From the UHGV virus genome UHGV-0080089: 15,374 nucleotides of DNA, one strand, 5' to 3'. The stretch comes from a virus. Every line of letters begins with the position of its first letter. Positions within the stretch are counted from its first letter, which is position 1. The notes beneath the pieces were generated by a model. It did no database searches and had not been told where the DNA came from. It was given only the letters and a program-made list of their open reading frames with translations. Of this stretch, positions 958 through 14,207 are shown in pieces. Position numbers and translations under genes: made by a program.

Positions 958-958
958 C

Positions 959-1756
959 TCAATGAACGGTATCGAGCAGCTTTAACAGCTCAGGGAATCG
1001 GGATTCGAAGAAATGCGGCTGCGTCTCGCGCGGATTTGCAGGACTGGTGATGTTCTTGCCGAACATGCAGCCTTTCGCCGTCAGCGACCAGAATTTTTTG
1101 ATGTTGTTAATCGCGGTACGGCTGTATCGTTCGCGCTGCTCGACGATCCCCAGCTTCACCATCTGGTGATATGCCTGATTAGCTGTCAGGCGGATACCAT
1201 ACTGCTTCAGCAGTGCACTCAGTGACAGCGTGGGGCGGCTTGAGCCATCAGGCGCGTCAGCAGGAGCATCAATGGCATAGCGCGGTGCCAGATTCGGTAA
1301 GCCAACAGCCTCCTGGAGTTTCTGACAGGCACCAAGCACTGAAGAGTTAGACAGGTTTAATTCCCGGCGCATAAAGTCCAGCAGAATCACACCAGCCTGC
1401 ATCTTGTCAGCAGCCTGTCCGGATAATTTTTCCGGTGCGCTGGTTACCATGTCGAAAGTACGGATCACCTTCAGATGGAATGACGGGCTGATCCACATTG
1501 CATAGGCATACACCAGTTCTTTGCAGACATACGTCCCCTGGTTATTTCCGCCACGAATAACGTTAACTGACTCTATATTGACCGAGTTGCAAATCTGCAA
1601 CTCGCTTATTAAACGCTCAGTTTGCTCATTGCGGAGCCAGAATGCAGGCTTATGCTTATCCAGAGAACCAGCAGCCCTGTGCAGATCGTTCAGGCTGTAA
1701 CGCCCATAAGCATCACGACGAACTTCAATACCATCAATGACCATCAGATTATTCAT
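959..1756 (-). CDS. KilA-N domain protein (phage antirepressor-like/Bro-N-like)
   Basis: ORF track 959..1789; chosen start ATG 1756 (MNNLMVIDG...) preceded by strong SD (AGAGGAGAAACGAAGT-ATG). N-terminal region MVIDGIEVRRDAYGRYSLNDLHRAAG...YVCKELVYAYAMWISPSFHLKV fits the KilA-N/APSES pattern from memory. Confidence 0.7.
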   Translation of the reverse strand: MNNLMVIDGIEVRRDAYGRYSLNDLHRAAGSLDKHKPAFWLRNEQTERLISELQICNSVNIESVNVIRGGNNQGTYVCKELVYAYAMWISPSFHLKVIRTFDMVTSAPEKLSGQAADKMQAGVILLDFMRRELNLSNSSVLGACQKLQEAVGLPNLAPRYAIDAPADAPDGSSRPTLSLSALLKQYGIRLTANQAYHQMVKLGIVEQRERYSRTAINNIKKFWSLTAKGCMFGKNITSPANPRETQPHFFESRFPELLKLLDTVH

Positions 1757-1775
1757 ACTTCGTTTCTCCTCTTGA

Positions 1776-2165
1776 TCAGGCGGCTGCACCCGCCGTTTTC
1801 TCGTACTTACTGATAGTGATCTCGACCTTCCCTTCCGGGATAACCGGTCCCCACTCCACCAGCATTCTTTTCACCTGACTGTCGTCTTCCCACACCCCCG
1901 CGTGGGTCAGGGCGTCAAACAGCGCCTTGTTATAGTTGTCCAGATCGCGGATCCTGTTATCCGGAGGAAACAACACGATCTCCACTGAAGCAGGTGCCGA
2001 CGTTGGTTTCGGCAGACGACGTAACTGCTCAACTATTGCTGCGCACGCCGCGCTCTGGAATTTTCGCCCCGCCGCGCTTATCAGGCTCTTACCAGCAAAC
2101 GCCCCTTTGTTGGGGTGTCGCCAGTACGTGTTCACGCTGGGCGGAAAAGGCAGGATCAGCTTCAT
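1776..2165 (-). CDS. rusA: RusA-family Holliday junction resolvase
   Basis: 129 aa; LPFPPSVNTYWRH N-terminus and DNRIRDLDNYNKALFDALTHAGVWEDDSQV core match the RusA pattern (LPWPPSNNRYY...RRDLDN..KA.FDALT.AG.W.DD.QV). ATG 2165 overlaps upstream stop (ATGA). Confidence 0.85.
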   Translation of the reverse strand: MKLILPFPPSVNTYWRHPNKGAFAGKSLISAAGRKFQSAACAAIVEQLRRLPKPTSAPASVEIVLFPPDNRIRDLDNYNKALFDALTHAGVWEDDSQVKRMLVEWGPVIPEGKVEITISKYEKTAGAAA

Positions 2166-2488
2166 ACTTTCAGGCCCCTCTCATGTAACCAGTGGGTTGC
2201 ACGCAGCCTTGCGTTTTCCTCACCGGCAAGCAGTGAGCGGATAATCCCGACCGCCTCGCTGTCGTCGTCCTTCACCGCGGTATGAAGCGTGATGCCCCGG
2301 GCCACGCCACGCTTTATCGTGATGACGCCTTTTTTCTCCAGTGCGCGAAGATGCTCCACCGCTGCATTCACTGAACGGTATCCCAGCATGGTTGCCACCT
2401 CCTGATTGGTTGGCGGGAAGCCACGTTCTTTCTGATAAGAAATCAGCATATCCAGCACCTGCTGCTGGCATTGAGTTAACGTCGTCAT
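2162..2488 (-). CDS. LexA N-terminal DNA-binding-domain protein (winged helix only, no S24 peptidase domain)
   Basis: 108 aa; LTQCQQQVLDMLISYQKERGFPPTNQEVATMLGYRSVNAAVEHLRALEKKGVI closely parallels the LexA N-terminus ([53 protein letters not shown]); no Ala-Gly/Ser/Lys protease module follows. ATG 2488; stop overlaps rusA start. Confidence 0.7.
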   Translation of the reverse strand: MTTLTQCQQQVLDMLISYQKERGFPPTNQEVATMLGYRSVNAAVEHLRALEKKGVITIKRGVARGITLHTAVKDDDSEAVGIIRSLLAGEENARLRATHWLHERGLKV

Positions 2489-3138
2489 GCCGCCATCTCC
2501 CTGACCAGTTTTTCTGCCTGCTGGCGAACCTGCGCCAGAAAGGCCTCACCACATGCCTCAAGTTCATCGCGCCCGATGTAGCTGATTGCCGGTCCCTTCC
2601 AGGTCTTGTCGAAAACAGCAATAGCACCAGCGAAGAAAGCGCCTGTCGGCACCTGCTTCTCATCCTTCGGGATAAACCAGGCAGGCAGTTCAAAACCAAT
2701 ACGCCCGCGAATAAAAGCAATATGATCTGCATCTTCCGGCCACCACACTTCGCTGGTGGCAGCTTTGATCAGGAAAACATAGCGCCCGCCTTTATCACGC
2801 ATGGCACTGGCATGCTTCATGATGTAACGCATGCCGGTGATGTATTGCCCCTCATGCTGACTGGCGCGGCTGTATGGGGGATTACCAAAGGCAGCACCTT
2901 TAAGCTCCGCAAGGCGTTCTGACCAGTCATGCGCCAACGCGTTGTCTTCCGCCGTGTAATACGCAGCACATTTGGCGTTATCACCGTCAGTAAACAGATC
3001 CAGAACAAACGGGCCAAACAGAGTGTTAATTCCCCAGAAAATGTTGTCCGGCGTGCGCCACTGATCGCCCACTTCCTTCAGTTCATGGGCTGGTTTGTTC
3101 CGCAGTTCCGCCAGCGCCTGGCAATATTTATTACTCAT
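2485..3138 (-). CDS. Phage N6-adenine DNA methyltransferase (Dam-like, phage_N6A_met type)
   Basis: Catalytic FGNPPY motif and N-terminal WRTPDNIF...NAKC..YYTAED pattern. Start taken as ATG 3138 (MSNKYCQ...), overlapping the upstream TAA (TAATG); the track's longer 3171 start is GTG and overlaps the upstream gene by 33 nt. Confidence 0.8.
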   Translation of the reverse strand: MSNKYCQALAELRNKPAHELKEVGDQWRTPDNIFWGINTLFGPFVLDLFTDGDNAKCAAYYTAEDNALAHDWSERLAELKGAAFGNPPYSRASQHEGQYITGMRYIMKHASAMRDKGGRYVFLIKAATSEVWWPEDADHIAFIRGRIGFELPAWFIPKDEKQVPTGAFFAGAIAVFDKTWKGPAISYIGRDELEACGEAFLAQVRQQAEKLVREMAA

Positions 3139-3626
3139 TAAGCCCCCACGTAATTCCCTGAGAGATACCACTCTTCACCTGATGCAGCCCGCTTACTGCT
3201 TTTCCGTAAACACCGTTCACGACGTGCCAGAAAATTGTTTCGTTCTGGCTGGGAGTGGCTTTCACGGAATGCCGCCATCCACACCGTTGCAGCACGACGG
3301 TATAAGCCCCTGGACTCCAGTTCTTCCGCCTGGCGGGTCAGGCACAAAATCACCCGCGGGTCGTTAGTGCCGACATAGAAATTGCGCACAGGTCTGGTTT
3401 CACGAACTGGTTGTGGTTCCGGATCCTGCGCTCTCTCAGTCAGGCGCGGGAAATGTCTGTGTGTATCTCCTTCACAACGGTGAGCCACACGCCCACTCTG
3501 ACGTAACTTGCTTGCTGACTGCAGAACGCGCTGCCGTGAGTAACCTGCAAAAGCATCCGCAATGTCTCCGGAAGTACAGCCCGGATGGGCTTCAATGAAT
3601 TTCTGAACGTCATTCAAAAGACTCAT
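3138..3626 (-). CDS. Hypothetical phage protein, YfdN-like (~162 aa), putative N-terminal winged-helix
   Basis: ORF track 3138..3632 (GTG); preferred start ATG 3626 with SD GGGGGTG 6 nt upstream, 2 nt after the replication gene stop. Size and position (between replication gene and methyltransferase) match yfdN of CPS-53 as recalled. Confidence 0.6.
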   Translation of the reverse strand: MSLLNDVQKFIEAHPGCTSGDIADAFAGYSRQRVLQSASKLRQSGRVAHRCEGDTHRHFPRLTERAQDPEPQPVRETRPVRNFYVGTNDPRVILCLTRQAEELESRGLYRRAATVWMAAFRESHSQPERNNFLARRERCLRKSSKRAASGEEWYLSGNYVGA

Positions 3627-3628
3627 GC

Positions 3629-4570
3629 TCACCCCCTGAATCCTGCCGGGATCTGGCTGTAGTCCACATTGTCGTAACTGGCTTTGAAGTACGGGTCTTC
3701 GCGTTTTTCTGTGTACGTGCTGACGGACGGCGATAAGCGCAGGGAAAGCTCATCCCATTTTTCCCGCAGCTTCGACGGGCTGAGCACGTTACGGCACCAG
3801 AACGGATCGCGGCTGACGCGGCTGTACATCTCGCAGATTTGTTTGTGAGTACGACCATCCTGCACACACATCAGGCGAATTTCGTTTGCCCAGGCTGTCC
3901 AGTTCGGTTCTTTGGGACGAACCACCTCGCCGTCACATTCGGCAGCCTGCTCGTACAGGGCGATGATTTTTTTCCAGAGCCACTGTGCGCAGGTCAAATC
4001 ATCCTGCGTCCCCCACTGGCGCTTTTTAGGGCTGAATACAACCGCATCAGGATGGCGAGTTAAAAAATCCTGTTCAGCCGTCTGCGTGTCCGGTTGCGAA
4101 GCGTCCGGACGAGAAGGTTTTTTATCTGACGGATCATGTTTTGATTTTACTGACGGATCCCCGCCAGATTCTGACGGGTGAAAACCCGCTTTTTTGCCAG
4201 ATTTCGACGCATCAAATTTTGACGGGTCAGATTTTGATGCGTCAGATTTTGACGGGTCAGAATCTGACAGTTGAGAAAATGCCGCTGCCTGAAGCTTCGC
4301 AACGTTAAGCTGATAAACATTCGACGCATTGCGGTTACCCTGGCGACGCGCCTTACGCGTTAACCAGCCTTCTGCTTCCAGCCGTGCGATAGCCGTTCTG
4401 ACGGTACTCATCCCCGCGCCAATCTGACGGGCAATGGTTTCAATTGATGGCCAGCACACACCTTCGTCATTACTGAAATCAGCCAGGCGGGCCATAATTG
4501 CCACGCTGGATAACTTCATGCCTGATGCAGCGCAACCATCCCATACATAGCCGGTTAATTTAGTGCTCAT
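3629..4570 (-). CDS. Phage replication initiation protein (lambda O-like architecture: N-terminal HTH, internal iteron-encoded linker, C-terminal domain)
   Basis: 313 aa; ATG 4570 with SD AGAGGT; N-terminal wHTH (SVAIMARLADFSNDEGVCWPSIETIARQIGAGMSTVRTAIARLEAEGWL); central peptide repeats SDPSKSDASKSDPSKFDASKS encoded by 15-bp DNA direct repeats. Confidence 0.7.
   Translation of the reverse strand: MSTKLTGYVWDGCAASGMKLSSVAIMARLADFSNDEGVCWPSIETIARQIGAGMSTVRTAIARLEAEGWLTRKARRQGNRNASNVYQLNVAKLQAAAFSQLSDSDPSKSDASKSDPSKFDASKSGKKAGFHPSESGGDPSVKSKHDPSDKKPSRPDASQPDTQTAEQDFLTRHPDAVVFSPKKRQWGTQDDLTCAQWLWKKIIALYEQAAECDGEVVRPKEPNWTAWANEIRLMCVQDGRTHKQICEMYSRVSRDPFWCRNVLSPSKLREKWDELSLRLSPSVSTYTEKREDPYFKASYDNVDYSQIPAGFRG
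4122..4273. repeat. Iteron-like direct repeats (~15-bp units AGATTTTGACGGGTC / AGATTTTGATGCGTC) inside the replication gene; candidate replication origin
   Basis: Four contiguous 15-bp units at 4214..4273 (aaattttgacgggtc, agattttgatgcgtc, agattttgacgggtc, agaatctgacagttg) plus spaced copies at 4165..4180 and 4198..4213 and TGACGG cores at 4127 and 4152. Confidence 0.6.
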
Positions 4571-4918
4571 GACCGACCTCTATTTCCCTGAATTTACGAC
4601 GAAACTGTTCGAGCGGACTGAAGCATTCATGCTCATAACCTTCGCGGAGGTAGATAACCCGTTGTGTTTCCGGCTCCCAACGAATGACTCTGACGGGCAC
4701 TCCGTAGTGATCTTTGAACCAGCGGTTAACTTGTCGCAAAGGACTGTCTCCTTCTGCCGGTTGAAATCACCCACAGCCCACTCTGCAAAGCTGTGGGTTA
4801 CAATTTCCCTGTCACCTGGTACATTCACTGCATAGCAATATTCCACCTTCGCTTTTCCACCCGGAACAGGAAGCGCAATCAGTTGCGAGCGACGGTAGTG
4901 TGTTGTTAAACTGTTCAT
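4563..4918 (-). pseudogene. Frameshift-disrupted small phage gene (~115 aa if restored) between the cII-position gene and the replication gene
   Basis: Track ORF 4580..4918 starts protein-like ([55 protein letters not shown]) then turns into low-complexity sequence; a second frame open from 4766 to stop 4562..4560 reads [65 protein letters not shown] with no ATG. Frame switch lies within ~4750..4770, next to an 8-bp-stem hairpin at 4771..4798. Confidence 0.4.
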
Positions 4919-5523
4919 GCGTTAGTTTCTCCACAGTCACGACACGCTACGGCGCCCGGAGCTGCACACTCGCGGGCGTCATTACTTTCTGAAATGCAAA
5001 AAATTTTGTAGACCAGTGCTGCATGCTCCTGCAGCTTCGAAATTGAGAGGTAGAGCTCGTCATTAATTGCTGTCTTCTCATGCGGTTCCACTACACCGTC
5101 TTCGATTGCTGAACGAATCTGTTTTGAATAACTGCCGATCTGTTCAATGACTTCCAGCAGACGCTGGTTAATATCGGCGTTGTCCACATCCTCGACGTCA
5201 GGAAGAGACACAAAGACGCCATTTGCAGACTGCGCCACAGCATCAGCAATGAAGTGAGTTCCACCAGCACGTTGCAAAATCATTGCCCATCCCAGCGGGA
5301 AAATCTGATCGCCATCGGCACGAAGGCGGTTAAATAATGCGTTCTCTGTTACATCCAGCCAGTCAGCAGCTTCAGCGTAACCCCCCGGCAACGCTGCGAT
5401 AGTTTTTCTGACAGCTTTCACGTACCACTCAGGCTGTTTGTCTACTTTCCAGTGATGCTTACCCACGGTTAGCCTCATCGTTCTGTGGTTTCTGTTAATC
5501 GATTTATCCATTAGATTTTTCAT
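4915..5523 (-). CDS. Early regulatory protein in the cII position (possibly YdaT-like); C-terminal Cys cluster
   Basis: Track ORF 4915..5580 begins at GTG; first ATG at 5523 (MKNLMDK...) chosen, alternative ATG 5511 overlaps the cro-like stop. Weak SD for both. C-terminus [13 protein letters not shown]. Family assignment is by position after the YdaS-like gene, not sequence. Confidence 0.55.
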
Positions 5524-5704
5524 AAAGCTCAGGTTTAAATGGCAACCGTCCGCAAGTTCTATATGCAGCTTCTGCTGCACGTCCTTTTGGAATTAACTGG
5601 CCCGGACGGTTTCGCCACTGATAAACGGCTTCAGTTGTTATGCCGAAAAAAGCAGCAACTTTCTCAATACTGCCGAAGTAGCTTTCGATATCGTCAGTTG
5701 TCAT
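5504..5704 (-). CDS. Cro-like / YdaS-family HTH regulator
   Basis: 66 aa; ATG 5704 with strong SD (GGAGGG 6 nt upstream); HTH region VAAFFGITTEAVYQWRNRPGQLIPKGRAAEAAYRTCG; divergent from cI across a 97-bp operator region. Confidence 0.75.
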   Translation of the reverse strand: MTTDDIESYFGSIEKVAAFFGITTEAVYQWRNRPGQLIPKGRAAEAAYRTCGRLPFKPELYEKSNG

Positions 5705-5801
5705 ACGCCCTCCAAACTAAGTTTTATTAGATGCTAATTACAAATCTATCTTTGGTCAATAAAAACTAAGATTACTTAGTAATTAAAGAAATGGTGCTCC
5801 T
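5705..5801. promoter_or_regulatory. Immunity-region divergent promoter/operator region (OR-like)
   Basis: Perfect 16-bp palindrome ACTAAGattaCTTAGT at 5765..5780; related imperfect site ACTAAGttttATTAGa at 5716..5731. Minus-strand promoter candidate for the cro-like gene: -35 TTGACC (5759..5754), 17-bp spacer, -10 TAGCAT (5736..5731). Confidence 0.6.
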
Positions 5802-6428
5802 ATGGAAACGGTTGGTCAGCGTATAAAAGCTCTGAGAAGAGTTACCAGAACGTCCCAGAAAGAATTGGGTAAATTTTGTGGAGTAAGCGACGTTGCTGTG
5901 GGGTACTGGGAGAAAGACATCAATACCCCTGGTGGGGAGGCACTTTCGAAATTAGCGAAGTTCTTCAATACGTCAATAGATTACATTCTTTATGGTGCTG
6001 AGTTTGAAGGCAAACTCGTCACAAACATGCGCAGAGTTCCTGTAATATCGTGGGTTCAGGCTGGGCAGTTTACTGAGTGCAGGGCAGCAGAAGTGTTTAG
6101 TGAAGTGGACAAGTGGGTAGATACATCATTAAAGATTGGTGATAACTCATTTGCATTAGAGGTTAAAGGTGACTCCATGACTAACCCTAATGGCCTCCCA
6201 ACAATACCAGAAGGCGCAACAGTGATTGTAGATCCAGATGCAGAACCTCGTCATGGAAAAATAGTCATCGCTCGACTTGATGGAACAAACGAAGCTACAG
6301 TAAAAAAATTAGTCATCGATGGCCCTCAAAAGTTTTTAGTGCCATTAAATCCTCGGTATCCCAACATCCCTATCAATGGTAATTGCCTTATCATTGGTGT
6401 AGTCAAAGGAGTTCAATACGAACTCTAA
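5802..6428 (+). CDS. cI: CI-type prophage repressor (HTH_XRE + S24 LexA-like peptidase domain)
   Basis: 208 aa; N-terminal HTH (QKELGKFCGVSDVAVGYWEKD); Ala-Gly in VISWVQAGQF; Ser nucleophile in GDSM and Lys in VKKLV with S24 spacing. Confidence 0.9.
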   Translation: METVGQRIKALRRVTRTSQKELGKFCGVSDVAVGYWEKDINTPGGEALSKLAKFFNTSIDYILYGAEFEGKLVTNMRRVPVISWVQAGQFTECRAAEVFSEVDKWVDTSLKIGDNSFALEVKGDSMTNPNGLPTIPEGATVIVDPDAEPRHGKIVIARLDGTNEATVKKLVIDGPQKFLVPLNPRYPNIPINGNCLIIGVVKGVQYEL

Positions 6429-6439
6429 GACCTCTCTTC

Positions 6440-6510
6440 TCTAACTAAGGCACCGAACTAAGAAAAGTTTGGTGTTTTCTCTTGCCATAATAACTAAGTT
6501 AAGTTAGATT
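6440..6510 (+). promoter_or_regulatory. Second operator cluster downstream of cI (OL-like) with candidate plus-strand promoter
   Basis: ACTAAG half-site motifs at 6444..6449, 6457..6462 and 6493..6498; promoter-like -35 TTGCCA (6482..6487), 17-bp spacer, -10 TAGATT (6505..6510). Confidence 0.4.
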
Positions 6511-6675
6511 TTATGTCAAAGATAACGAACAGGCAGGACGCCCACGAAGTAGCCGCCTGGGGCATATGAAGTCCAGGATGATTCGTTAGCAACAAAAAAG
6601 CGCCCTACAGGACGCTTAGCTCTTTAACAATCTGGTCCCCATCAACAAGTAACTGATAACTTGAGGAGATGTGAA

Positions 6676-6882
6676 ATGCACAAAACAGAACCCAAAATCG
6701 TCGCGCCTGGCTACACAGATGAGGAAATTTATGAGTGGATGACAAAGAAGCTGGCAGCTATAAACCAGCTTCGTGAAGTGCTGTCTTATCGACAGGAAAC
6801 AATAGACTCCTTAAAAAAACTGGATCAGGAAATCACGGTTTTATCACAGGATGTTACTTTAGATATTGTGCAGACAAATTAG
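6676..6882 (+). CDS. Hypothetical small protein (68 aa), AT-rich accessory gene downstream of cI
   Basis: ATG 6676 preceded by GAGGAG (6663..6668) at 7-nt spacing; track ORF begins at TTG 6661. No recognisable motif and not arginine-rich; 3' end overlaps the convergent 144-aa gene by 29 bp. Confidence 0.55.
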   Translation: MHKTEPKIVAPGYTDEEIYEWMTKKLAAINQLREVLSYRQETIDSLKKLDQEITVLSQDVTLDIVQTN

Positions 6883-7288
6883 GATCCCATTCATTTTCGT
6901 CAAAATCATCAAAGTGATGAATTTGTGATCTCCAGTCTCGATAATCTAAAAATTTCTGGGCGGTTACGCTTATTTTATCAAGTGTGAGTTCATCCTGAAT
7001 TGAAAGAAGAAGTTCATCAAATTTCATCTCATTAATCTGTTTTGGCATCCAGTGATGCTTCATCAGAATAAGGTGAACCAGAGCCTTTTTCCCATTCAAC
7101 TGATTATAGGGAGTGCCGAATTTCTTCCGGTGCTCATGTAAGACAAGGTCCAAAAGAGTAAGTAATGTTGCCCTTGATTCAACTTTGCTTATTTCGACTG
7201 ATGACACTACCCCACTGATTTCAATGCCCCGATACTTTCCAACATTTTCACAGTGGGATTTGTACAGCGTATAGATATTACCGGACAT
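6854..7288 (-). CDS. Hypothetical protein (144 aa), AT-rich accessory gene convergent with the 68-aa gene
   Basis: ATG 7288 with AAAGGAAAAGAA upstream; about 35% GC versus about 52% in flanking phage genes; acidic C-terminus (HHFDDFDENEWDP); no family recognised. Confidence 0.6.
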   Translation of the reverse strand: MSGNIYTLYKSHCENVGKYRGIEISGVVSSVEISKVESRATLLTLLDLVLHEHRKKFGTPYNQLNGKKALVHLILMKHHWMPKQINEMKFDELLLSIQDELTLDKISVTAQKFLDYRDWRSQIHHFDDFDENEWDPNLSAQYLK

Positions 7289-7303
7289 TTCTTTTCCTTT
7301 TGC

Positions 7304-7352
7304 GTTGTTGGGGATAACCAGATTAACCGAATCCTTGTTGTTGGGGAATAAC
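7304..7352. repeat. Tandem imperfect direct repeat (GTTGTTGGGGATAAC at 7304..7318 and GTTGTTGGGGAATAAC at 7337..7352, ~33-bp period) just upstream of the 144-aa gene
   Basis: Read directly from the sequence; on the minus strand each copy ends in an AAGGA-like element, the second forming the RBS of the 144-aa gene. Confidence 0.5.
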
Positions 7353-7574
7353 TAGGTCCACCTCGCCTGATGTGGCTAAAAGCAGGCACATAACAGCTAA
7401 GTATTTTCAACCAGAGAGAATCCTTAGCGTTGTGGTGAATGCGGCTCAGCGCACGCGGGTTAAGGTTGAGGCTGACAGTCGACCTTCTGTGGATACCCAC
7501 CCGCCTGGTGTGCAACCTTCGCCAGGCACCGGGAGGCACCCGGCACCACAACTTTATGCTGTGTGTAGTCTTGG

Positions 7575-7619
7575 CGGTACCAGCTTGTACCCTTGCTTCC
7601 GGCTGGTACCGTCCTTTTT
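7575..7619 (+). terminator. Candidate intrinsic terminator / attenuator hairpin upstream of the yfdP-like operon
   Basis: 10-bp perfect stem CGGTACCAGC (7575..7584) / GCTGGTACCG (7602..7611), 17-nt loop, then TCC + TTTTT (7615..7619). The loop is long for a canonical terminator. Confidence 0.4.
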
Positions 7620-7756
7620 ACAAAACAGAGAAGAGCATCACCGGACGACGGGCTCATAACCCAATCCATCCGGGCGGCAGTCACCGCAGGTGTTCTTCTC
7701 TGTTTTGTGGAGAAACTAACCGACCTTGCAGGGTCGATATGATGAGGAGCAGCAAA

Positions 7757-8119
7757 ATGGCTAGCGAACGCAGTACTGATGTGCAGGCATTTATCGGGGA
7801 GCTGGACGGCGGCGTATTTGAAACCAAAATCGGCGCAGTTCTCAGTGAAGTCGCTTCCGGTGTGATGAACACGAAAACCAAAGGTAAGGTCTCGCTCAAC
7901 CTGGAAATCGAACCGTTTGATGAGAACCGAGTGAAAATCAAACACAAACTCTCATATGTTCGCCCGACTAACCGCGGGAAAATTTCCGAAGAAGACACCA
8001 CCGAAACGCCGATGTATGTCAATCGCGGTGGTCGCCTGACTATTCTGCAGGAAGACCAGGGACAGTTACTGACTCTTGCCGGTGAACCTGACGGAAAACT
8101 CCGCGCAGCAGGTCGTTAA
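7757..8119 (+). CDS. YfdP-like early-left phage protein (120 aa), function unknown
   Basis: Track ORF 7439..8119 is a long GTG-initiated extension; chosen start ATG 7757 (MASERSTDVQ...) has GAGGAG (7744..7749) at 7-nt spacing. Size and position before the YfdQ-like gene match CPS-53 yfdP. Confidence 0.65.
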   Translation: MASERSTDVQAFIGELDGGVFETKIGAVLSEVASGVMNTKTKGKVSLNLEIEPFDENRVKIKHKLSYVRPTNRGKISEEDTTETPMYVNRGGRLTILQEDQGQLLTLAGEPDGKLRAAGR

Positions 8120-8184
8120 TATCGTTTTTAATTAACTGATTATTTATCTCATCACTGAATATCTTTATATAGTGAGGACTTATT

Positions 8185-9009
8185 ATGTCTCAGAACTTAG
8201 ACGCAACCGCAATTAATCAAATCCATGCCCTTATTTCTGCTCAGGGTGTTAATGAAATTATCAGTAAGATTGGTGCCGATGCTGTGGCATTGCCTGAGAA
8301 TTTCCGCATTCATGATCTGGAAAAATTTAATTTAAATCGCTTCCGTTTCCGTGGTGCGCTTTCCACTGCCAGCATCGATGACTTTACCCGTTATTCTAAA
8401 GATCTTGCAGATGAAGGCACCCGCTGCTTTATCGATGCTGATAATATGCGTGCCGTCAGTGTGCTTAACCTGGGTACTATTGATGAACCAGGTCACGCAG
8501 ATAACACCGCCACACTCAAACTGAAAAAGACAGCACCGTTCTCTGCTCTGTTGTCTGTTAACGGCGAGCGTAACTCCCAGAAGTCACTAGCAGAATGGAT
8601 TGAAGACTGGGCCGACTATCTTGTGGGCTTTGATGCTAATGGTGACGCTATTCAGGCAACAAAAGCGGCTGCGGCTGTCCGTAAAATCACGATTGAAGCA
8701 AACCAGACCGCTGATTTTGAAGATAATGACTTCAGCGGCAAACGCTCCCTGATGGAGTCTGTCGAAGCGAAGACCAAAGACATTATGCCAGTGGCATTTG
8801 AATTTAAATGCGTTCCGTTTGAAGGTCTGAAAGAACGTCCGTTTAAATTACGCCTCAGTATTATCACTGGCGATCGTCCTGTACTGGTTCTGCGCATTAT
8901 TCAGCTGGAGGCGGTGCAGGAAGAAATGGCTAACGAATTTCGTGATCTGCTTGTTGAGAAATTCAAGGACAGCAAAGTAGAAACCTTTATTGGTACTTTC
9001 ACCGCCTGA
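8185..9009 (+). CDS. yfdQ: DUF2303-family protein, YfdQ-like (274 aa)
   Basis: ATG 8185 with SD GAGGA at 6-nt spacing; sequence and length recalled as matching E. coli CPS-53 YfdQ (memory only, not searched). Confidence 0.75.
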
Positions 9010-9021
9010 TTTCATTACTGC

Positions 9022-9043
9022 AAATGCCCCTGCGGGGGCATTT
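9022..9043 (+). terminator. Hairpin downstream of the yfdQ-like gene (possible partial terminator)
   Basis: 9-bp stem AAATGCCCC / GGGGCATTT with 4-nt loop, 13 bp after the stop; T-tract limited to the stem's own 3' TTT. Confidence 0.35.
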
Positions 9044-9136
9044 ATGGAAACGTAATTTACTCAATAATCGCCGGATGGTGAGGGATTCTTTTTGCCAGAA
9101 TTCAGCGCGGTGCAGCGCATATACGTGGAGAACAAA

Positions 9137-9673
9137 ATGTCATTTATTAAAACTTTTTCCGGGAAGCATTTTTATTATGACAGGATAAATAAAGACGACA
9201 TCGATATTAACGATATCGCGGTTTCCCTTTCAAATATCTGTCGCTTTGCCGGTCATCTTTCGCACTTCTACAGCGTCGCCCAACATGCGGTTCTTTGCAG
9301 CCAGCTGGTGCCGCAGGAATTTGCTTTTGAAGCGTTAATGCATGATGCAACAGAAGCGTATTGCCAGGACATTCCCGCACCACTGAAACGCCTTCTTCCT
9401 GACTATAAACAAATGGAAGAAAAAATAGACGCCGTAATCCGTGAGAAATACGGGTTACCCCCAGTTATGAGTACGCCCGTGAAATATGCCGATCTCATCA
9501 TGCTGGCAACCGAACGCCGCGATCTCGGGCTTGATGATGGCTCTTTCTGGCCTGTACTGGAAGGTATCCCGGCAACAGAGATGTTCAACGTGATTCCACT
9601 GGCACCGGGCCATGCCTACGGGATGTTTATGGAACGCTTTAACGAGTTATCGGAGTTACGCAAATGCGCATGA
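9137..9673 (+). CDS. yfdR: HD-domain phosphohydrolase, YfdR-like (178 aa; 5'-deoxynucleotidase family)
   Basis: Chosen start ATG 9137 (MSFIKTF...) with GGAGA SD; HD motif in ALMHDATEAY plus upstream His (FAGHLSHF..QH); length matches YfdR as recalled. Confidence 0.8.
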   Translation: MSFIKTFSGKHFYYDRINKDDIDINDIAVSLSNICRFAGHLSHFYSVAQHAVLCSQLVPQEFAFEALMHDATEAYCQDIPAPLKRLLPDYKQMEEKIDAVIREKYGLPPVMSTPVKYADLIMLATERRDLGLDDGSFWPVLEGIPATEMFNVIPLAPGHAYGMFMERFNELSELRKCA

Positions 9674-10026
9674 ATATTTTCGAAATGGAAGGGTTTCTTC
9701 GTGGGAGATGTGTACCGCGAGATCTGAAAGTAAATGAAACAGATGCTGAATACCTGGTGCGTAAATTCGATGCGCTTGAAGCTAAATGTGCAGCACAGGA
9801 AAACAAAGTAATACCAGTGTCAACTGAACTGCCACCAGCAAATGAAAGTGTTTTGTTATTCGATGCTAACGGAGAAGGCTGGCTAATTGGCTGGCGTTCT
9901 CTCTGGTACACCTGGGGACAAAAAGAAACCGGAGAATGGCAGTGGACATTTCAGGTCGGGGACCTTGAAAACGTCAATATCACTCACTGGGCAGTAATGC
10001 CAAAAGCACCGGAGGCTGGAGCATAA
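9664..10026 (+). CDS. YfdS-like protein (120 aa; DUF551-like), function unknown
   Basis: ATG 9664 with GGAG 8 nt upstream; overlaps the yfdR-like stop; Trp-rich C-terminal half. Confidence 0.6.
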   Translation: MRMNIFEMEGFLRGRCVPRDLKVNETDAEYLVRKFDALEAKCAAQENKVIPVSTELPPANESVLLFDANGEGWLIGWRSLWYTWGQKETGEWQWTFQVGDLENVNITHWAVMPKAPEAGA

Positions 10027-10331
10027 TGACCACTTTTACCGACAAAGAACTGATTAAAGAAATTAAAGAGCGTATCAGCAGCCTTGACGTGCGAGACGAT
10101 ATTGAGCGCCGTGCTTATGAAATCGCACTCCTATCTCTGGAAGTAGAACCAGATGAACGCGAAGCTTATGAATTATTCATGGAAAAGCGTTTCGGTGACT
10201 TAGTAGATCGTCGGAGAGCAAAAAACGGCGATAACGAATACATGGCATGGGATATGACTCTCGGTTGGATCGTCTGGCAGCAACGAGCTGGTATCCATTT
10301 TTCAACAATGTCACAGCAAGAGGTGAAATAA
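10026..10331 (+). CDS. YfdT-like small protein (101 aa), function unknown
   Basis: ATG 10026 overlapping upstream TAA (TAATG), GGAG upstream; size and position match CPS-53 yfdT. Confidence 0.6.
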   Translation: MTTFTDKELIKEIKERISSLDVRDDIERRAYEIALLSLEVEPDEREAYELFMEKRFGDLVDRRRAKNGDNEYMAWDMTLGWIVWQQRAGIHFSTMSQQEVK

Positions 10332-10681
10332 TGGAGCCATACAGCCTCACACTCGATGAGGCCTGTCATTTTCTCAAGATATCCAGACCGACTGCCATTA
10401 ACTGGATACGCACAGGGCGTCTTCAGGCAACACGCAAAGATCCCACTAAGAATAAATCTCCTTACCTCACAACACGACAAGCCTGCATTGCGGCTCTTCA
10501 GTCTCCGCTGCATACTGTCCAGGTGAGCGCGGGTGATGGCATAACAGAGGAAAGAAAATGTCACTCTTCCGCAGAGGTGAAATATGGTACGCCAGTTTCA
10601 CATTGCCGAACGGTAAAAGATTTAAACAGTCTCTTGGAACAAAGGACAAAAGGCAGGCGACAGAACTCCATGACAAGCTAA
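10331..10681 (+). CDS. xis: Excisionase-like HTH protein (Xis/AlpA type, 117 aa); 3' end overlaps int by 124 nt
   Basis: ATG 10331 (TAATG overlap with upstream stop), SD GAGGTG; [29 protein letters not shown]; lies directly upstream of int. C-terminal extent uncertain. Confidence 0.6.
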
Positions 10682-11721
10682 AGGCTGAAGCATGGCGGGT
10701 CAGCAAACTTGGTGAAATACCTGATATAACGTTCGAGGAAGCGTGTGTCAGGTGGCTTGAAGAGAAAGCACATAAAAAATCACTGGACGATGACAAAAGC
10801 CGGATCGGATTCTGGCTTCAACATTTCGCAGGGATGCAACTAAGAGACATCACTGAATCAAAAATTTATTCAGCGATGCAGAAAATGACAAACCGGCGTC
10901 ATGAGGAAAACTGGAAACTCAGGGCAGAAGCATGCAGAAAAAAAGGGAAACCTGTTCCAGAATACACGCCAAAACCAGCGTCCGTTGCAACGAAGGCTAC
11001 GCATCTTTCATTTATAAAGGCCCTGCTAAGAGCCGCAGAGCGTGAATGGAAAATGCTTGATAAGGCACCAATTATTAAAGTGCCTCAACCGAAGAATAAA
11101 CGTATCCGCTGGCTGGAGCCTCATGAAGCACAAAGGCTGATTGATGAATGTCCGGAGCCATTAAAGTCTGTTGTTGAATTTGCACTGGCAACAGGCTTAA
11201 GACGCTCGAACATCATCAACCTTGAATGGCAACAAATAGACATGCAGCGCCGGGTGGCATGGATAAACCCGGAAGAGAGTAAATCAAACCGCGCAATTGG
11301 CGTTGCGCTGAATGATACTGCATGTCGCGTATTGAAAAAACAAATCGGGAATCATCACCGTTGGGTATTTGTTTACAAGGAAAGCTGTACCAAACCAGAC
11401 GGAACGAAAGCGCCAACGGTCAGGAAGATGCGGTATGACGCAAACACAGCCTGGAAAGCGGCGCTGAGACGAGCAGGTATTGATGATTTCAGATTTCACG
11501 ACTTGAGACACACCTGGGCAAGTTGGCTGGTTCAAGCCGGAGTCCCGTTGTCAGTGTTACAGGAAATGGGAGGCTGGGAGTCTATCGAAATGGTTCGTCG
11601 ATATGCTCACCTCGCACCTAATCACCTTACCGAACACGCACGGCAAATAGACTCGATCCTGAACCCATCGGTCCCAAATTTGTCCCAGTCAAAAAATAAG
11701 GAAGGTACTAATGATGTGTAA
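10558..11721 (+). CDS. int: Tyrosine integrase (P22 Int / KplE1 IntS type, 387 aa)
   Basis: ATG 10558 with SD GAGGAA; N-terminus [34 protein letters not shown] typical of this integrase group; catalytic pattern ...LRRS..., HDLRHTWAS, ...RRYAHL; stop 14 bp from the tRNA-Thr 3' fragment. Confidence 0.9.
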
Positions 11722-11735
11722 CTTATTGATTTAAA

Positions 11736-11781
11736 TGGTGCCGATAATAGGAGTCGAACCTACGACCTTCGCATTACGAAT
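11736..11781 (-). other. 3' fragment (anticodon loop to CCA end, 46 nt) of a tRNA-Thr(CGU) gene; att core / junction remnant, not an intact tRNA
   Basis: Minus strand reads ATTCGTAATGCGAAGGTCGTAGGTTCGACTCCTATTATCGGCACCA: anticodon loop TTCGTAA (CGT), variable loop, T-arm GTAGG-TTCGACT-CCTAT, acceptor 3' strand TATCGGC-A-CCA. Upstream sequence (CTGGTCTCGCTA) does not continue as D-arm or acceptor 5' strand. Resemblance to E. coli thrW is from memory. Confidence 0.75.
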
Positions 11782-11946
11782 TAGCGAGACCAGTGATTCA
11801 AGATGTTCACAGCCGTTTCAGCATACAATAAAAAACATATAAAAATCAACAAAATATACATAAATGCAGTATCAAGATGTTTCGCCTTGTTTCTGATGAT
11901 ATCATGTTAAATGTGTACCCCGCTGTGTACCCAAAAGGCTGAAGAT

Positions 11947-13266
11947 ATGACTTTTACTATTACACAAGACAGACAATTGGCTTCATTGACCGTTACTAAA
12001 GAAGAAAAAGAAATCTTATTTGCTGTAAAATCTAAAGCTGGGGGAGGACTCTTTATACGTGTTCGTTATGGTAGCGACAATAAAAGCTGGATTTATCGTT
12101 ATCGAATAGCTCAAAAGCCAGCTAAATTAACACTAGGTAGTTACCCTGCCATGGGATTAGCTCAAGCTCGTAAAGCTCATGCGGATGCAATTGAATTAGT
12201 AAGAAAAGGTATAGATCCTCGTCATATTAGAAAAAATGAAAAACAAAAAAATGAACAAATGATTATTTACTCTGAATTATGGAAAGATTGGATAGAATTC
12301 AGAAAGACAAGTAAACCAATTAGCACCAGAACCCTTGCAGATTATGAAGGGACTTATCACCGCCACCTTGAAAAAGCATTAGGAAACCTTCGCATTGACG
12401 AACTTACCAAAAGCGTTATTTTTGAACATCTCAGTAATGTAAGAAAAACCAGTTCTGAAGCAGTTCGTAAAGGATTAATTATTCTAAATATGACTCTTGA
12501 TCATGCCAACTTACAGGGTATGCTTGAGCATAACCCAGCACGACTGCTCAAACCAGCAATGTTTGGTGCATCGATGAATAAACCTCGCGAGCGATGGCTT
12601 CCTGAGAATGAACTCCGGATGCTATGGAAGGCTTTGGATGATGCTACTGTTGGAGGAGGCTCCATTGCATCTGGTGGCTATGGAGTTTCCTCTAGTGTGG
12701 TATTATCTCATTCTGTCGCAAATGCACTCCGTTTGATTATTTTCACAGGAGTGCGCCGCTCTGAAGCGGCACAAATGCGCTGGGATCAAATTAATGGAGA
12801 GCGTTGGACCATACCAGCCACTAAAAATGGGAAAAGCCATATTGTTACTTTACATCCGTATATGCTTTCTTTAATAAAAACACAACGTGAATTCACTGAA
12901 GGTGCATATGTTTTTGGTTCTACTAGCAAACCTGGCTTTCCCATCACAAATGACGCTCTGACTCGCGCGTTAGAAAGGGTTCGCTCTAAGTATCTAGCTG
13001 AACTTACTCCATTTTCTCCTCATGATCTGCGTAGAAGTGTTGCGACTGGATGCGCTGAATACCTTGATGCTCCAGAGCGCCTAATAGAGTTACTGTTAAA
13101 TCATGTACCCAAAGACCGTTTAATACGAACATATCAAGTCGGACAACAAGCTGAAAAATTAAAAAATTTATTTATAGAATGGGGGAATTTTATTATGAAT
13201 AACGTCATTACTGTGCAGAAGAATGCTCCGGATAATGTTATTCATATAAAATTTGGGAACAGATGA
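11947..13266 (+). CDS. int: P4-family tyrosine integrase (DUF4102-type N-terminal domain), about 38% GC
   Basis: Track ORF 11911..13266; preferred start ATG 11947 (MTFTITQDRQ...) with AAAGG SD; N-terminal arm-binding-like region (GGGLFIRVRYGSDNKSWIYRYR...LGSYPAMGLAQARK); catalytic pattern ...GVRRSEA..., HDLRRSVATG, ...LIRTYQVGQ. Confidence 0.85.
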   Translation: MTFTITQDRQLASLTVTKEEKEILFAVKSKAGGGLFIRVRYGSDNKSWIYRYRIAQKPAKLTLGSYPAMGLAQARKAHADAIELVRKGIDPRHIRKNEKQKNEQMIIYSELWKDWIEFRKTSKPISTRTLADYEGTYHRHLEKALGNLRIDELTKSVIFEHLSNVRKTSSEAVRKGLIILNMTLDHANLQGMLEHNPARLLKPAMFGASMNKPRERWLPENELRMLWKALDDATVGGGSIASGGYGVSSSVVLSHSVANALRLIIFTGVRRSEAAQMRWDQINGERWTIPATKNGKSHIVTLHPYMLSLIKTQREFTEGAYVFGSTSKPGFPITNDALTRALERVRSKYLAELTPFSPHDLRRSVATGCAEYLDAPERLIELLLNHVPKDRLIRTYQVGQQAEKLKNLFIEWGNFIMNNVITVQKNAPDNVIHIKFGNR

Positions 13267-13358: not shown

Positions 13359-14207
13359 TTAGATATTGTATGGGATTATTTCTGGATAATACTTCGCAAT
13401 GATGTCATTTAGCCGATCAATCAGTTCCGGTTTTCTGAACGTGATGTGCGCGGAGCCCTTCTTAAAGTATCTGATGCTGAACATCTCATCTTCATAGCAT
13501 GTTTTACCCTGAACAGACTGGATGTGCTCATCCAAACGAATGATGATGTTTTCCCGGTTGTCGGGAATGGGGTTGCCACTGAAGAGATGCAGCATCCTTT
13601 CCAGGTCGGCAACCCGGTCAGTCTGTTGCCCGGTGATAAGATGAAACCCCCACCGGTCCCACCTCACCAGGTTGTTGACGATAATTTTACTGCCAAATTT
13701 GCAGGGGCAATTGGTTTTGTAATTCCAGCTCAGTCCCCTGAAGACGTTGATCACCCCTCGCTCAAACACCTCATCCTTATTCTGGTGTAGTTGTTCGAAT
13801 GTGCTCAGAATGTTCGCTTCACTGATTTCCGGAAAATTATCGTACTCCAGTGACCGGTACCATGTATCACGGGCCTGTGCATCCATTAAGGAAAGTATCC
13901 CTGAACGTTGCATCAGGTCACGCCAGATTTCGCGGTCAAGGTTCCGGGTGATGGCTTTCATTGCCATTTCCGGTTTCTCCATCAGCCAGCAGCCGCAGCG
14001 AAAATCCTGTTTCATGGCCCAGTCCAGTGCAGTTTTACCTCCGATGCTTTCCGTCAGCACTGAAATTTCAGCCAGTTGCCGGATAAGCATTTCGGCTTGT
14101 TGCAGTGCTGCATACCGTACCGTCACAACGTGTCGGATACTGGTTGAGCCGATAACGTCCGTATGCCCGTTGACCACTTCCGGACGGGAGACTGTGATAT
14201 CAGACAT
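13359..14207 (-). CDS. Hypothetical protein (282 aa), island cargo of unknown function; two CxC motifs (FRCGCW, NCPCKFG)
   Basis: ATG 14207 with AAGGA upstream; no family recognised with confidence; convergent with int2 and directly downstream of the truncated Ag43 fragment. Confidence 0.6.
   Translation of the reverse strand: MSDITVSRPEVVNGHTDVIGSTSIRHVVTVRYAALQQAEMLIRQLAEISVLTESIGGKTALDWAMKQDFRCGCWLMEKPEMAMKAITRNLDREIWRDLMQRSGILSLMDAQARDTWYRSLEYDNFPEISEANILSTFEQLHQNKDEVFERGVINVFRGLSWNYKTNCPCKFGSKIIVNNLVRWDRWGFHLITGQQTDRVADLERMLHLFSGNPIPDNRENIIIRLDEHIQSVQGKTCYEDEMFSIRYFKKGSAHITFRKPELIDRLNDIIAKYYPEIIPYNI

Follow-up and report, generated by a model that had tools for sequence, protein, structure and literature searches.

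An intact yfdP-yfdQ-yfdR-yfdS-yfdT block in the early-left arm of a lambda-like prophage of the SfV/SfIV/CPS-53 type

Which genes occupy the early-left arm of the prophage carried by UHGV virus genome UHGV-0080089, and what may they do for the phage or for its host? In the window, i.e., the whole stretch of 15,374 nucleotides that was analysed, the open reading frame list and its translations give five consecutive plus-strand genes at 7757-10331, coding for 120, 274, 178, 120 and 101 amino acids. A first-pass annotation had recognized in their sizes and order the yfdP-yfdT genes of prophage CPS-53, and among their products an HD-domain, YfdR-like protein and a DUF2303 protein. Database searches of each protein upheld membership of the yfd families, as opposed to unrelated ones:

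7757..8119, plus strand: yfdP, 120 amino acids, Pfam YfdP family (PF27127); phrog_204, 1.2e-49
8185..9009, plus strand: yfdQ, 274 amino acids, DUF2303 (PF10065, 2e-92 over the full length); PDB 9o7m, 'YfdQ Protein', 1.2e-44
9137..9673, plus strand: yfdR, 178 amino acids, predicted member of the HD-domain 5'-deoxynucleotidase family; phrog_318, 2.7e-110; PDB 2gz4, 3.3e-14
9664..10026, plus strand: yfdS, 120 amino acids, C-terminal DUF551; phrog_583, 2.4e-82; start overlapping the yfdR stop by 10 nt
10026..10331, plus strand: yfdT, 101 amino acids; phrog_660, 6.8e-31; ATGA start/stop overlap with yfdS

In global alignments, the five proteins have the same lengths as those of CPS-53 in E. coli K-12 MG1655 and are 98.3% (YfdP), 99.3% (YfdQ), 97.8% (YfdR), 95.0% (YfdS) and 96.0% (YfdT) identical to them; at the DNA level, window positions 7738-10384 correspond to K-12 2473585-2476231 with 96.6% identity. 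Such near-identical homology to annotated genes puts the assignment far beyond chance, and on this alignment evidence the five genes are confirmed as an intact yfdP-yfdQ-yfdR-yfdS-yfdT block of the known SfV/SfIV/CPS-53 type. The profile matches agree: YfdQ scores 309.7 bits against DUF2303 (cutoff 26.6; residues 7-272 of 274), the precomputed annotation gives PF27127 for the YfdP cluster representative (98% identical) and for every homologue listed, and YfdS matches DUF551 (PF04448) marginally (22.2 bits, cutoff 22; residues 50-117). The program-made list also holds longer versions of yfdP (7439-8119, 226 aa, ATG) and yfdR (9092-9673, 193 aa, TTG); the shorter starts are the RefSeq starts in near-identical genomes and have ribosome-binding sites. 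In fact, a Shine-Dalgarno-like GGAG/GAGG motif is present 5' of each of the five genes, and start/stop overlaps connect yfdR with yfdS, yfdS with yfdT, yfdT with xis and xis with int. That these are functionless, decaying remnants, as the location of the K-12 copy in a cryptic prophage might suggest, is extremely improbable: none of the five is shortened, their identity across hosts is 95-99%, they have ribosome-binding sites and they occur in plaque-forming phages, and this conservation already effectively refutes the idea.

In the early-left arm, the block is flanked by the immunity region (cI, 5802-6428) on one side and by xis-int on the other. Its linkage to cI/cro, operators and a replication module, which had also been claimed for it, agrees with the Pfam matches, the operator-like sites and the full O-like gene:

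3629..4570, minus strand: O-like replication initiator (HTH_36; Pfam, 4.3e-11); related phages have it annotated as replication protein O/primosomal protein
5504..5704, minus strand: cro (Pfam P22_Cro, 4.4e-11; RefSeq 'Cro/CI family transcriptional regulator' in a near-identical genome)
5705..5801: cI-cro intergenic region, with a pR candidate (TTGACC-17-TAGCAT, 5759-5731, minus strand) and operator-like palindromes at 5716 and 5765 (ACTAAGATTACTTAGT); consensus matches, with a putative function suggested by position
5802..6428, plus strand: cI repressor, with HTH_3 (1.2e-9) and S24 self-cleaving peptidase (Peptidase_S24, 9.2e-28) domains
6440..6510, plus strand: candidate OL/pL, with ACTAAG half-sites at 6444, 6457 and 6493 and a promoter-like TTGCCA-17-TAGATT at 6482-6510, directed toward the yfd genes
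6676..6882, plus strand: 68-aa open reading frame, first gene past the pL candidate; phrog_1744, 6e-35; annotated as hypothetical protein
6854..7288, minus strand: ECs1072-family phage-associated gene (NCBIfam NF033230, 1.7e-46), in a variable insert slot
10331..10681, plus strand: xis, excisionase (HTH_17, 7.3e-9; phrog_2907 excisionase, 4.9e-30)
10558..11721, plus strand: int, tyrosine integrase of 387 aa (Phage_integrase, 3.2e-48)
11736..11781, minus strand: tRNA-Thr 3' fragment (att core), end of the prophage; identical to the 3' part of tRNA-Thr by proA in strain YZ3E2001, with divergence from 11782

The divergent cI (HTH and S24 peptidase) and cro genes, with a CII-like CP76 gene downstream of cro, make up a lambdoid immunity layout. 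Sites resembling ACTAAG-N4-CTTAGT lie at 5716, 5765, 6444, 6457 and 6493, on both sides of cI. Window-wide, neither promoter-like sites (7, against 9.8 expected from shuffled sequence) nor operator-like sites (7, against 6.7) exceed chance, and it is only their clustering around cI that is suggestive of these putative elements. The insert slot carries another gene in place of the ECs1072-family one in strain CAVP814. At the other end of the block, xis starts at 10331, where it shares 1 nt with the yfdT stop, and the end of xis overlaps int; a longer in-frame xis frame (10247-10681) is listed, with a ribosome-binding site only at start 10331. Searches for complete tRNAs in the window (ARAGORN), for Rfam families in the whole window, including the GC-rich stretch at 7290-7756, for DnaA boxes near the yfd cluster or the replication gene, and for PADLOC defence models among the five Yfd proteins and their neighbours gave no match. 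The window prophage ends at the tRNA-Thr fragment, and thrW/proA is the attachment site of Shigella phages SfIV, SfV and SfII. As judged from these features, it is a prophage of the SfV/SfIV/CPS-53 lambda-like type, integrated at tRNA-Thr (thrW/proA).

Compared with its closest relatives, the prophage shares the block but differs in what surrounds it. CPS-53 (KpLE1) contains the same five genes in the same order (b2359-b2363), 95-99% identical in protein and 96.6% in DNA over 2.6 kb. Homology to K-12 is restricted to window positions 2872-4337 and 7738-10384, so K-12 is left without a counterpart of 4338-7737, the stretch with the pL region, cI, cro, the cII-like gene and a portion of the O-like gene. 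The K-12 yfdO gene, to judge from the end of the homology at 4337, is a truncated remnant of the O-like gene at 3629..4570. CPS-53 also differs in being located at argW, with another integrase (intS) and excisionase (torI), and the homology ends inside xis, at 10384. In SfIV, SfV and SfII, the cluster is 99.2-99.7% identical and located likewise between cI and xis-int; SfIV and SfV have it together with their own cI/cro, and the alignment to SfIV spans 84% of the prophage arm (97.6% identity). SfV, by contrast, covers just 35% of window 6429-7756, having orf33 where the window has the 68-aa frame and the ECs1072-family gene, and its replication gene set is unlike that of the window.

The same cluster is found between cI and xis-int in SfV (orf32-28), SfIV, Kati, PhiR29/49 and Stx2c phages, and the SfV homologues were already pointed out by Noguchi and Katayama (2016; PMC4776307). 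At least 80% of the cluster is present in 1942 of the 5426 complete E. coli genomes. The cluster is thus an ordinary one, since more than one third of these genomes and several isolated phages have it, and the first-pass annotation went too far in implying that an intact cluster linked to a complete immunity region is rare: this is the normal arrangement in viable SfV, SfIV, SfII, Kati, vB_EcoS-569R4 and Stx2c phages. The block, its order, its linkage to the immunity region and the interaction of YfdR with DnaA have all been published or annotated before, and hence are already known.

What the block may do is best approached from YfdR. The HD metal-binding residues are present (H50, H69-D70 and D119) and align with conserved positions of Atu1052 (PDB 2gz4), and the protein matches PHROG families described as 'deoxyribonucleoside 5' monophosphate phosphatase'. 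It scores 25.2 bits against Pfam YfbR-like (PF12917), just under the curated cutoff of 25.9, and 17.5 against HD_3 (cutoff 22.5); it is not a YfbR orthologue, since it reaches 20.5 against the NCBIfam YfbR equivalog, whose cutoff is 122. A report that YfdR interacts with DnaA, mentioned with reserve in the first-pass annotation, does exist (Noguchi and Katayama, 2016; PMC4776307). In that work, K-12 YfdR had a weak 5'-deoxynucleotidase (dNMP phosphatase) activity, and purified YfdR bound DnaA domain I in a Phe46-dependent manner, competing for the site with DiaA and the DnaB helicase. Moreover, multicopy yfdQ and yfdR, together with yfdS or yfdT, inhibited initiation at oriC, yfdP being dispensable. 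The phenotype was obtained on multicopy plasmids only, deletion of yfdQRST being without effect on initiation, and the authors concede that it may be an overexpression artefact (PMC4776307).

It is possible, although we lean against it, that the main job of YfdR is remodelling of the nucleotide pool, as a 5'-deoxynucleotidase in lytic growth, and that the binding to DnaA arises as a by-product when it is overexpressed. The intact metal-binding residues and the homology to YfbR-like/Atu1052 HD hydrolases and PHROG phosphatases fit such a role, as do the YfdR homologues of 333 phage genomes, some of which belong to large virulent phages infecting Bacillus, Caulobacter and Stenotrophomonas, in which an E. 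coli-specific contact with DnaA domain I is unlikely to be conserved. Nevertheless, binding by the purified protein depends on a defined residue, Phe46 (PMC4776307), which speaks against a mere by-product.

We consider it probable, with some confidence, that the region is the int-proximal part of an early-left (pL) operon from which YfdQRST damp host initiation in favour of phage replication. Gene identity, order and integrity are established here; DnaA binding and inhibition of initiation were described for the 95-99% identical K-12 proteins, the latter in multicopy. In the lysogen, pL would be repressed by cI; after cI self-cleavage upon DNA damage, or upon infection, the five genes would be transcribed, and xis-int after them, starting at the pL candidate (6482-6510). 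YfdR, acting on DnaA domain I through Phe46 together with YfdQ and YfdS or YfdT, would then damp initiation at the host origin, from which phage replication may benefit. Noguchi and Katayama (2016; PMC4776307) drew the analogy with lambda P, also an early phage protein that binds DnaA and depresses initiation at oriC. Nonetheless, P is a helicase loader that binds DnaA domain III, whereas YfdR is an HD hydrolase that binds domain I and has no homology to P.

The genes could instead be retained for the stress tolerance of the lysogen and not for any gain to the phage. K-12 becomes more sensitive to H2O2 or acid when CPS-53, yfdQ or yfdS is deleted (Wang 2010, cited in PMC4776307), and the cluster persists both in the otherwise decayed K-12 prophage and in the 1942 genomes counted above. 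We regard this as quite improbable: in intact phages the genes belong to a repressed pL operon, translationally coupled to xis-int, which is the place of lytic or early functions, and the same genes occur in virulent phages, which have no lysogenic state.

The distribution of the individual genes adds a second aspect. Judged by homology searches, the block is a mosaic, made of a tight yfdP-yfdQ pair, an independent and widespread yfdR, and yfdS and yfdT as replaceable accessories. With tblastn against a phage collection, YfdP matched 180 and YfdQ 184 records with a nearly identical host spectrum, and yfdP was directly upstream of yfdQ in every record found in both match tables; YfdR matched 333, some of them from phages of Bacillus, Caulobacter and Rhizobium. 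Two distant prophages, of Klebsiella and Yersinia, were examined; in both, YfdP-DUF2303-YfdR are kept at 60-64% identity and other genes replace yfdS and yfdT. The pair ranges from temperate lambdoids of enterobacteria to Vibrio, Pseudomonas, Acinetobacter and virulent Xanthomonas phages, and the DUF2303 profile collects 1819 clusters at 50% identity, nearly all of 265-285 aa. A separate scan of IMG/VR for distant DUF2303 loci yielded 80, of which 79 were 100% and one was 99% identical.

A structure of a YfdQ homologue, PDB 9o7m, is deposited with 36 chains, and the YfdQ fold has no other solved relative. We found no paper that mentions the code; a cryo-EM preprint on Xanthomonas phage PhiXacm4-11 was considered as its source and rejected, as it gives other accession codes and never mentions YfdQ. 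A scan of genome contigs with the 9o7m sequence gave no match, and in the phage collection the sequence was located in Xanthomonas phage MET23-P3 and CP2-type phages. We tentatively propose, with the balance still against it, that yfdP-yfdQ form an obligate two-gene module with an undescribed function, more than an accessory to YfdR, possibly a large oligomeric machine that works on the DNA of the phage or of the host (e.g., in DNA-end handling or replication takeover).

One specific version, in which the pair serves DNA recombination or DNA ends as an accessory module and takes the slot of a missing Red/Erf/RecT module, seems to us rather doubtful. No Rec module component (strand-annealing protein, exonuclease or RecBCD inhibitor) was found among the cI-int products with Pfam, PHROGs and NCBIfam, and the prophage part of the window (11.8 kb) contains six Chi octamers. 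The 'No Rec module, high Chi' lambdoids (LLS, ST64B and phiNP; Zheng et al., 2025) similarly carry an early-left yfdP/yfdQ/HD-phosphatase trio and lack Red/Erf/RecT/Gam, although the LLS proteins are 76-90% identical to those of ST64B and the ST64B YfdQ and YfdR are 57-69% identical to those of the window. The pair lies inside or beside recombination genes in three unrelated phage lineages: Stx phage PA2 (gam-RecT-exo-SSB-YfdP-DUF2303), Xanthomonas phage MET23-P3 (YfdP-YfdQ, two genes, then Erf-exonuclease-SSB) and Vibrio phage VvAW1 (exonucleases-HNH-YfdP-DUF2303-x-SSB). Deletion of yfdQ raises sensitivity to MMS and H2O2, as cited in PMC4776307, and the 36 chains of 9o7m suggest a large oligomer. 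Gene neighbourhood is, however, circumstantial, and Zheng et al. (2025) rejected a cryptic recombinase role because the yfd genes co-occur with complete Rec modules; AF2 models, moreover, do not resemble Gam or any known annealing protein or exonuclease. A hidden recombinase role of YfdQ, raised by a beta-beta-beta-alpha element in the model, was also rejected, as neither fold search supported it.

The finding in the window itself carries little weight, since the genes, their order, their immunity link in viable phages and the YfdR-DnaA interaction were already on record. Its value lies in the system: a relative of CPS-53 that is intact and probably inducible (or SfIV/SfV) would be a natural one in which the shutdown of host initiation by YfdQRST may be tested under native expression, and it would open the first search for the role of the widespread YfdP-YfdQ pair, neither of which the decayed K-12 prophage can settle.

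Five consecutive plus-strand genes, with exactly the sizes proposed by the first-pass annotation, were identified in the window:

7757-8119, plus strand: yfdP, 120 aa
8185-9009, plus strand: yfdQ, 274 aa
9137-9673, plus strand: yfdR, 178 aa
9664-10026, plus strand: yfdS, 120 aa
10026-10331, plus strand: yfdT, 101 aa

A GGAG/GAGG-type ribosome-binding site is present at the start of each. The five proteins have the same lengths as their counterparts in CPS-53, the cryptic prophage of E. coli K-12 MG1655 (b2359-b2363), and are 95.0-99.3% identical to them (YfdP 98.3%, YfdQ 99.3%, YfdR 97.8%, YfdS 95.0% and YfdT 96.0%), with 96.6% DNA identity to K-12 over 7738-10384; the proposed match to yfdP-yfdT also agrees with the RefSeq names of the five ORFs in near-identical genomes (yfdP, yfdQ, yfdR, 'phage protein' and yfdT). 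The cluster is already known and annotated, is very common and occurs here in its usual context: at least 80% of it is carried by 1942 of 5426 complete E. coli genomes, it is 99.7, 99.2 and 98.4% identical to the clusters of the Shigella flexneri phages SfIV and SfV and of phage Kati, respectively, and it is also found in PhiR29/PhiR49 and Stx2c phages. SfV has the same layout (cro-operators-cI-orf33-orf32..orf28-xis-int), and 84-85% of the window prophage arm is matched at ~98% identity by vB_EcoS-569R4 and SfIV, both isolated phages.

The yfdP-yfdQ and yfdQ-yfdR spacers are 65 and 127 nt long, respectively. The yfdR stop and yfdS start overlap by 10 nt, yfdS and yfdT share ATGA, yfdT and xis share TAATG, and the xis ORF extends to 10681, overlapping int (start 10558) by 124 nt in a different frame; yfdR through int therefore constitute a translationally coupled string. 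Records differ in how they annotate xis and int: the RefSeq HTH/excisionase start (10247) is without a ribosome-binding site and the RefSeq int start is a TTG at 10603; the xis start at 10331, coupled to the yfdT stop, and the int start at 10558 (ORF 10558-11721, 387 aa, as in SfV) both have good ribosome-binding sites.

The 15.4-kb window is E. coli DNA, with megablast hits for 5425 of 5426 complete genomes of the species, and over positions 1-11781 it shares 99.6% identity with a strain YZ3E2001 prophage that ends at tRNA-Thr, adjoining proA. The plus-strand order is cI, a 68-aa ORF, yfdP-yfdT, xis and int. Around the cluster we identified the following genes, those of the minus strand being given leftward from cro:

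5504-5704, minus strand: cro (P22_Cro family)
next leftward, minus strand: CII-like CP76 gene
leftward of the CP76 gene, minus strand: DUF4222 gene
3629-4570, minus strand: O-like replication initiator (HTH_36)
leftward of the initiator, minus strand: PerC-like gene
leftward of the PerC-like gene, minus strand: Dam methyltransferase
2162-2488, minus strand: LexA DNA-binding-domain-only protein, 108 aa
leftward of the LexA-domain protein, minus strand: RusA
leftward of RusA, minus strand: KilA-N protein
leftward of the KilA-N gene, minus strand: DUF968 gene, start only
5802-6428, plus strand: cI (HTH_3 and Peptidase_S24)
6676-6882, plus strand: 68-aa ORF (phrog_1744)
6854-7288, minus strand: ECs1072-family gene, between the 68-aa ORF and yfdP

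Two elements lie in tandem at thrW (11736-13266, on to 15374), an arrangement found whole in only 3 of 5426 genomes. At the end of the prophage only a 46-bp 3' piece of tRNA-Thr is present (11736-11781), an intact copy being absent, and right after it begins the second element, similar to CP4-type islands of K-12, with its own 451-aa integrase (11911-13266) and:

13359-14207, minus strand: DUF4942 gene
from 14292, minus strand: Ag43/Cah autotransporter

The cluster had been described as retained with a complete immunity region; cI and cro are indeed present here and absent from CPS-53, but their linkage to the cluster is not unusual. K-12 homology is limited to 2872-4337 (yfdM/N/O) and 7738-10384, and CPS-53 is therefore without the intervening 3.4 kb, which here encompass the remainder of the O-like gene, the cII-like gene, cro, cI and sequence downstream of cI. 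The deletion boundaries in K-12 correspond to 4337/4338 and 7737/7738; what is left of the O-like gene (yfdO) there abuts sequence immediately 5' of yfdP, and the cII-like gene, cro, cI and the pL candidate are lost. The deletion would explain the release of yfdP-T from repressor control in K-12.

A pR-like promoter (5759-5731, minus strand) and a pL-like promoter (6482-6510, plus strand) were observed, as were ACTAAG-N4-CTTAGT-like palindromes between cro and cI (5716 and 5765) and directly after cI (6444, 6457 and 6493). Promoter-like and operator-like pattern counts in the whole window are not above shuffled expectation, and the one point that supports an operator reading is the clustering of these patterns around cI.

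The region between cI and yfdP (6429-7756) is a variable slot, occupied by a different gene, of 171 aa, in strain CAVP814 and by orf33 in SfV; the insert genes gave no match in PADLOC. The 3' end of the 68-aa ORF overlaps the convergent ECs1072-family gene, and a terminator-like hairpin lies at 6617-6598 on the minus strand. Just upstream of yfdP, 7290-7756 has a GC content of ~53% vs ~44% nearby, is a 'frameshifted hypothetical protein' in RefSeq records of near-identical genomes and gave no Rfam match; an ATG at 7439 is in frame with yfdP, and the translation is Arg/Cys-rich and appears non-coding. K-12 homology near yfdP begins only at 7738.

The yfdP-yfdT block is a mosaic. In a tblastn search of 50,697 phage records, YfdP and YfdQ were found in 180 and 184 records, respectively, with practically equal host spectra (Escherichia/Stx phages, Vibrio, Xanthomonas, Salmonella, Shigella, Pseudomonas and Acinetobacter), and YfdP is directly upstream of YfdQ, on the same strand, in every record common to both; even Xanthomonas phage MET23-P3 has a YfdP homologue ahead of YfdQ (hhalign probability 99.2%). 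YfdR, found in 333 records, has a wider and very different spectrum, comprising phages of Bacillus, Caulobacter, Rhizobium, Stenotrophomonas and Ruegeria. In prophages of Klebsiella and Yersinia the order cI...YfdP-DUF2303-YfdR is preserved (64 and 60% identity, respectively), with other genes in place of yfdS and yfdT.

No Rec module, the recombination genes of lambdoid phages, was found among the products of the early-left arm in Pfam, PHROG and NCBIfam searches, and no Red/Erf/RecT/Gam genes in the 11.8 kb of prophage, which contain six Chi octamers (GCTGGTGG; 319, 448, 1856, 2752, 5261 and 9832; two on the plus and four on the minus strand). The prophage would thereby fit the 'no Rec module, many Chi' lambdoid class; yfdP, yfdQ and HD-phosphatase genes occur frequently, though not exclusively, in lambdoid phages that have no Rec module (Zheng et al., 2025). 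In Stx phage PA2 the YfdP-YfdQ pair is preceded by gam-RecT-exo-SSB, with no HD-phosphatase gene annotated adjoining it, in MET23-P3 two genes separate it from an Erf-exonuclease-SSB group that follows, and in Vibrio phage VvAW1 it lies among exonuclease, HNH and SSB genes. This recurrent neighbourhood is a circumstantial hint at a DNA-transaction role, a live alternative for YfdP-YfdQ.

The domain assignments made at first reading hold for both proteins concerned. YfdQ is a full-length DUF2303 protein (E 2e-92), and a profile search of 1.8 billion representatives returned 1819 clusters at 50% identity, nearly all single-domain and of 265-285 aa. A PDB sequence search with YfdQ retrieved entry 9o7m ('YfdQ Protein', E 1.2e-44), with 36 chains of a single sequence, 98.8% identical to a MET23-P3 protein; the sequence originates from a CP2/MET23-type Xanthomonas phage, and a literature search for the entry found no publication. 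At this MET23-P3 locus (6532-7786) the gene directly upstream of YfdQ is annotated as 'translation elongation factor', probably wrongly, since it is the YfdP homologue detected by hhalign. YfdP is a member of a recent Pfam family, PF27127 ('YfdP'), YfdS has a marginal match to a C-terminal DUF551 domain, and YfdT has only PHROG matches, all of unknown function; PADLOC defence models gave no match to the five proteins. YfdR has the HD metal-binding residues (H50, H69-D70 and D119) and matches Atu1052 (PDB 2gz4, E 3.3e-14) and the PHROG 'deoxyribonucleoside 5' monophosphate phosphatase' family (2.7e-110), and a nucleotide-pool role is a live alternative for this protein. Its Pfam YfbR-like score is slightly under threshold (25.2 vs 25.9 bits); a YfbR equivalog was ruled out.

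The interaction of YfdR with DnaA that was mentioned at first reading matches a published study (Noguchi and Katayama, Front Microbiol 2016, PMC4776307), in which yfdQRST was recovered as a multicopy suppressor of hda-185, DnaA binding by purified YfdR depended on Phe46 and extracts inhibited oriC replication in vitro. Deletion gave no phenotype, and the authors left an overexpression artefact possible; they named SfV ORFs as homologues and proposed that, in the ancestral phage, the genes acted in host takeover in the manner of lambda P (PMC4776307). Among the genes scanned in the early-right arm (959-5580, minus strand), no P/DnaC/DnaB-like Pfam match, that is, no recognisable helicase loader or helicase, was found, which may bear on YfdR choosing the DnaB-binding face of DnaA.

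The finding of the first-pass annotation is real and its interpretation right, for a gene block that was already known. The best-supported reading is that the five genes belong to the pL operon and act early, on induction: with the help of YfdQ and of YfdS or YfdT, YfdR would bind DnaA domain I and damp host initiation.
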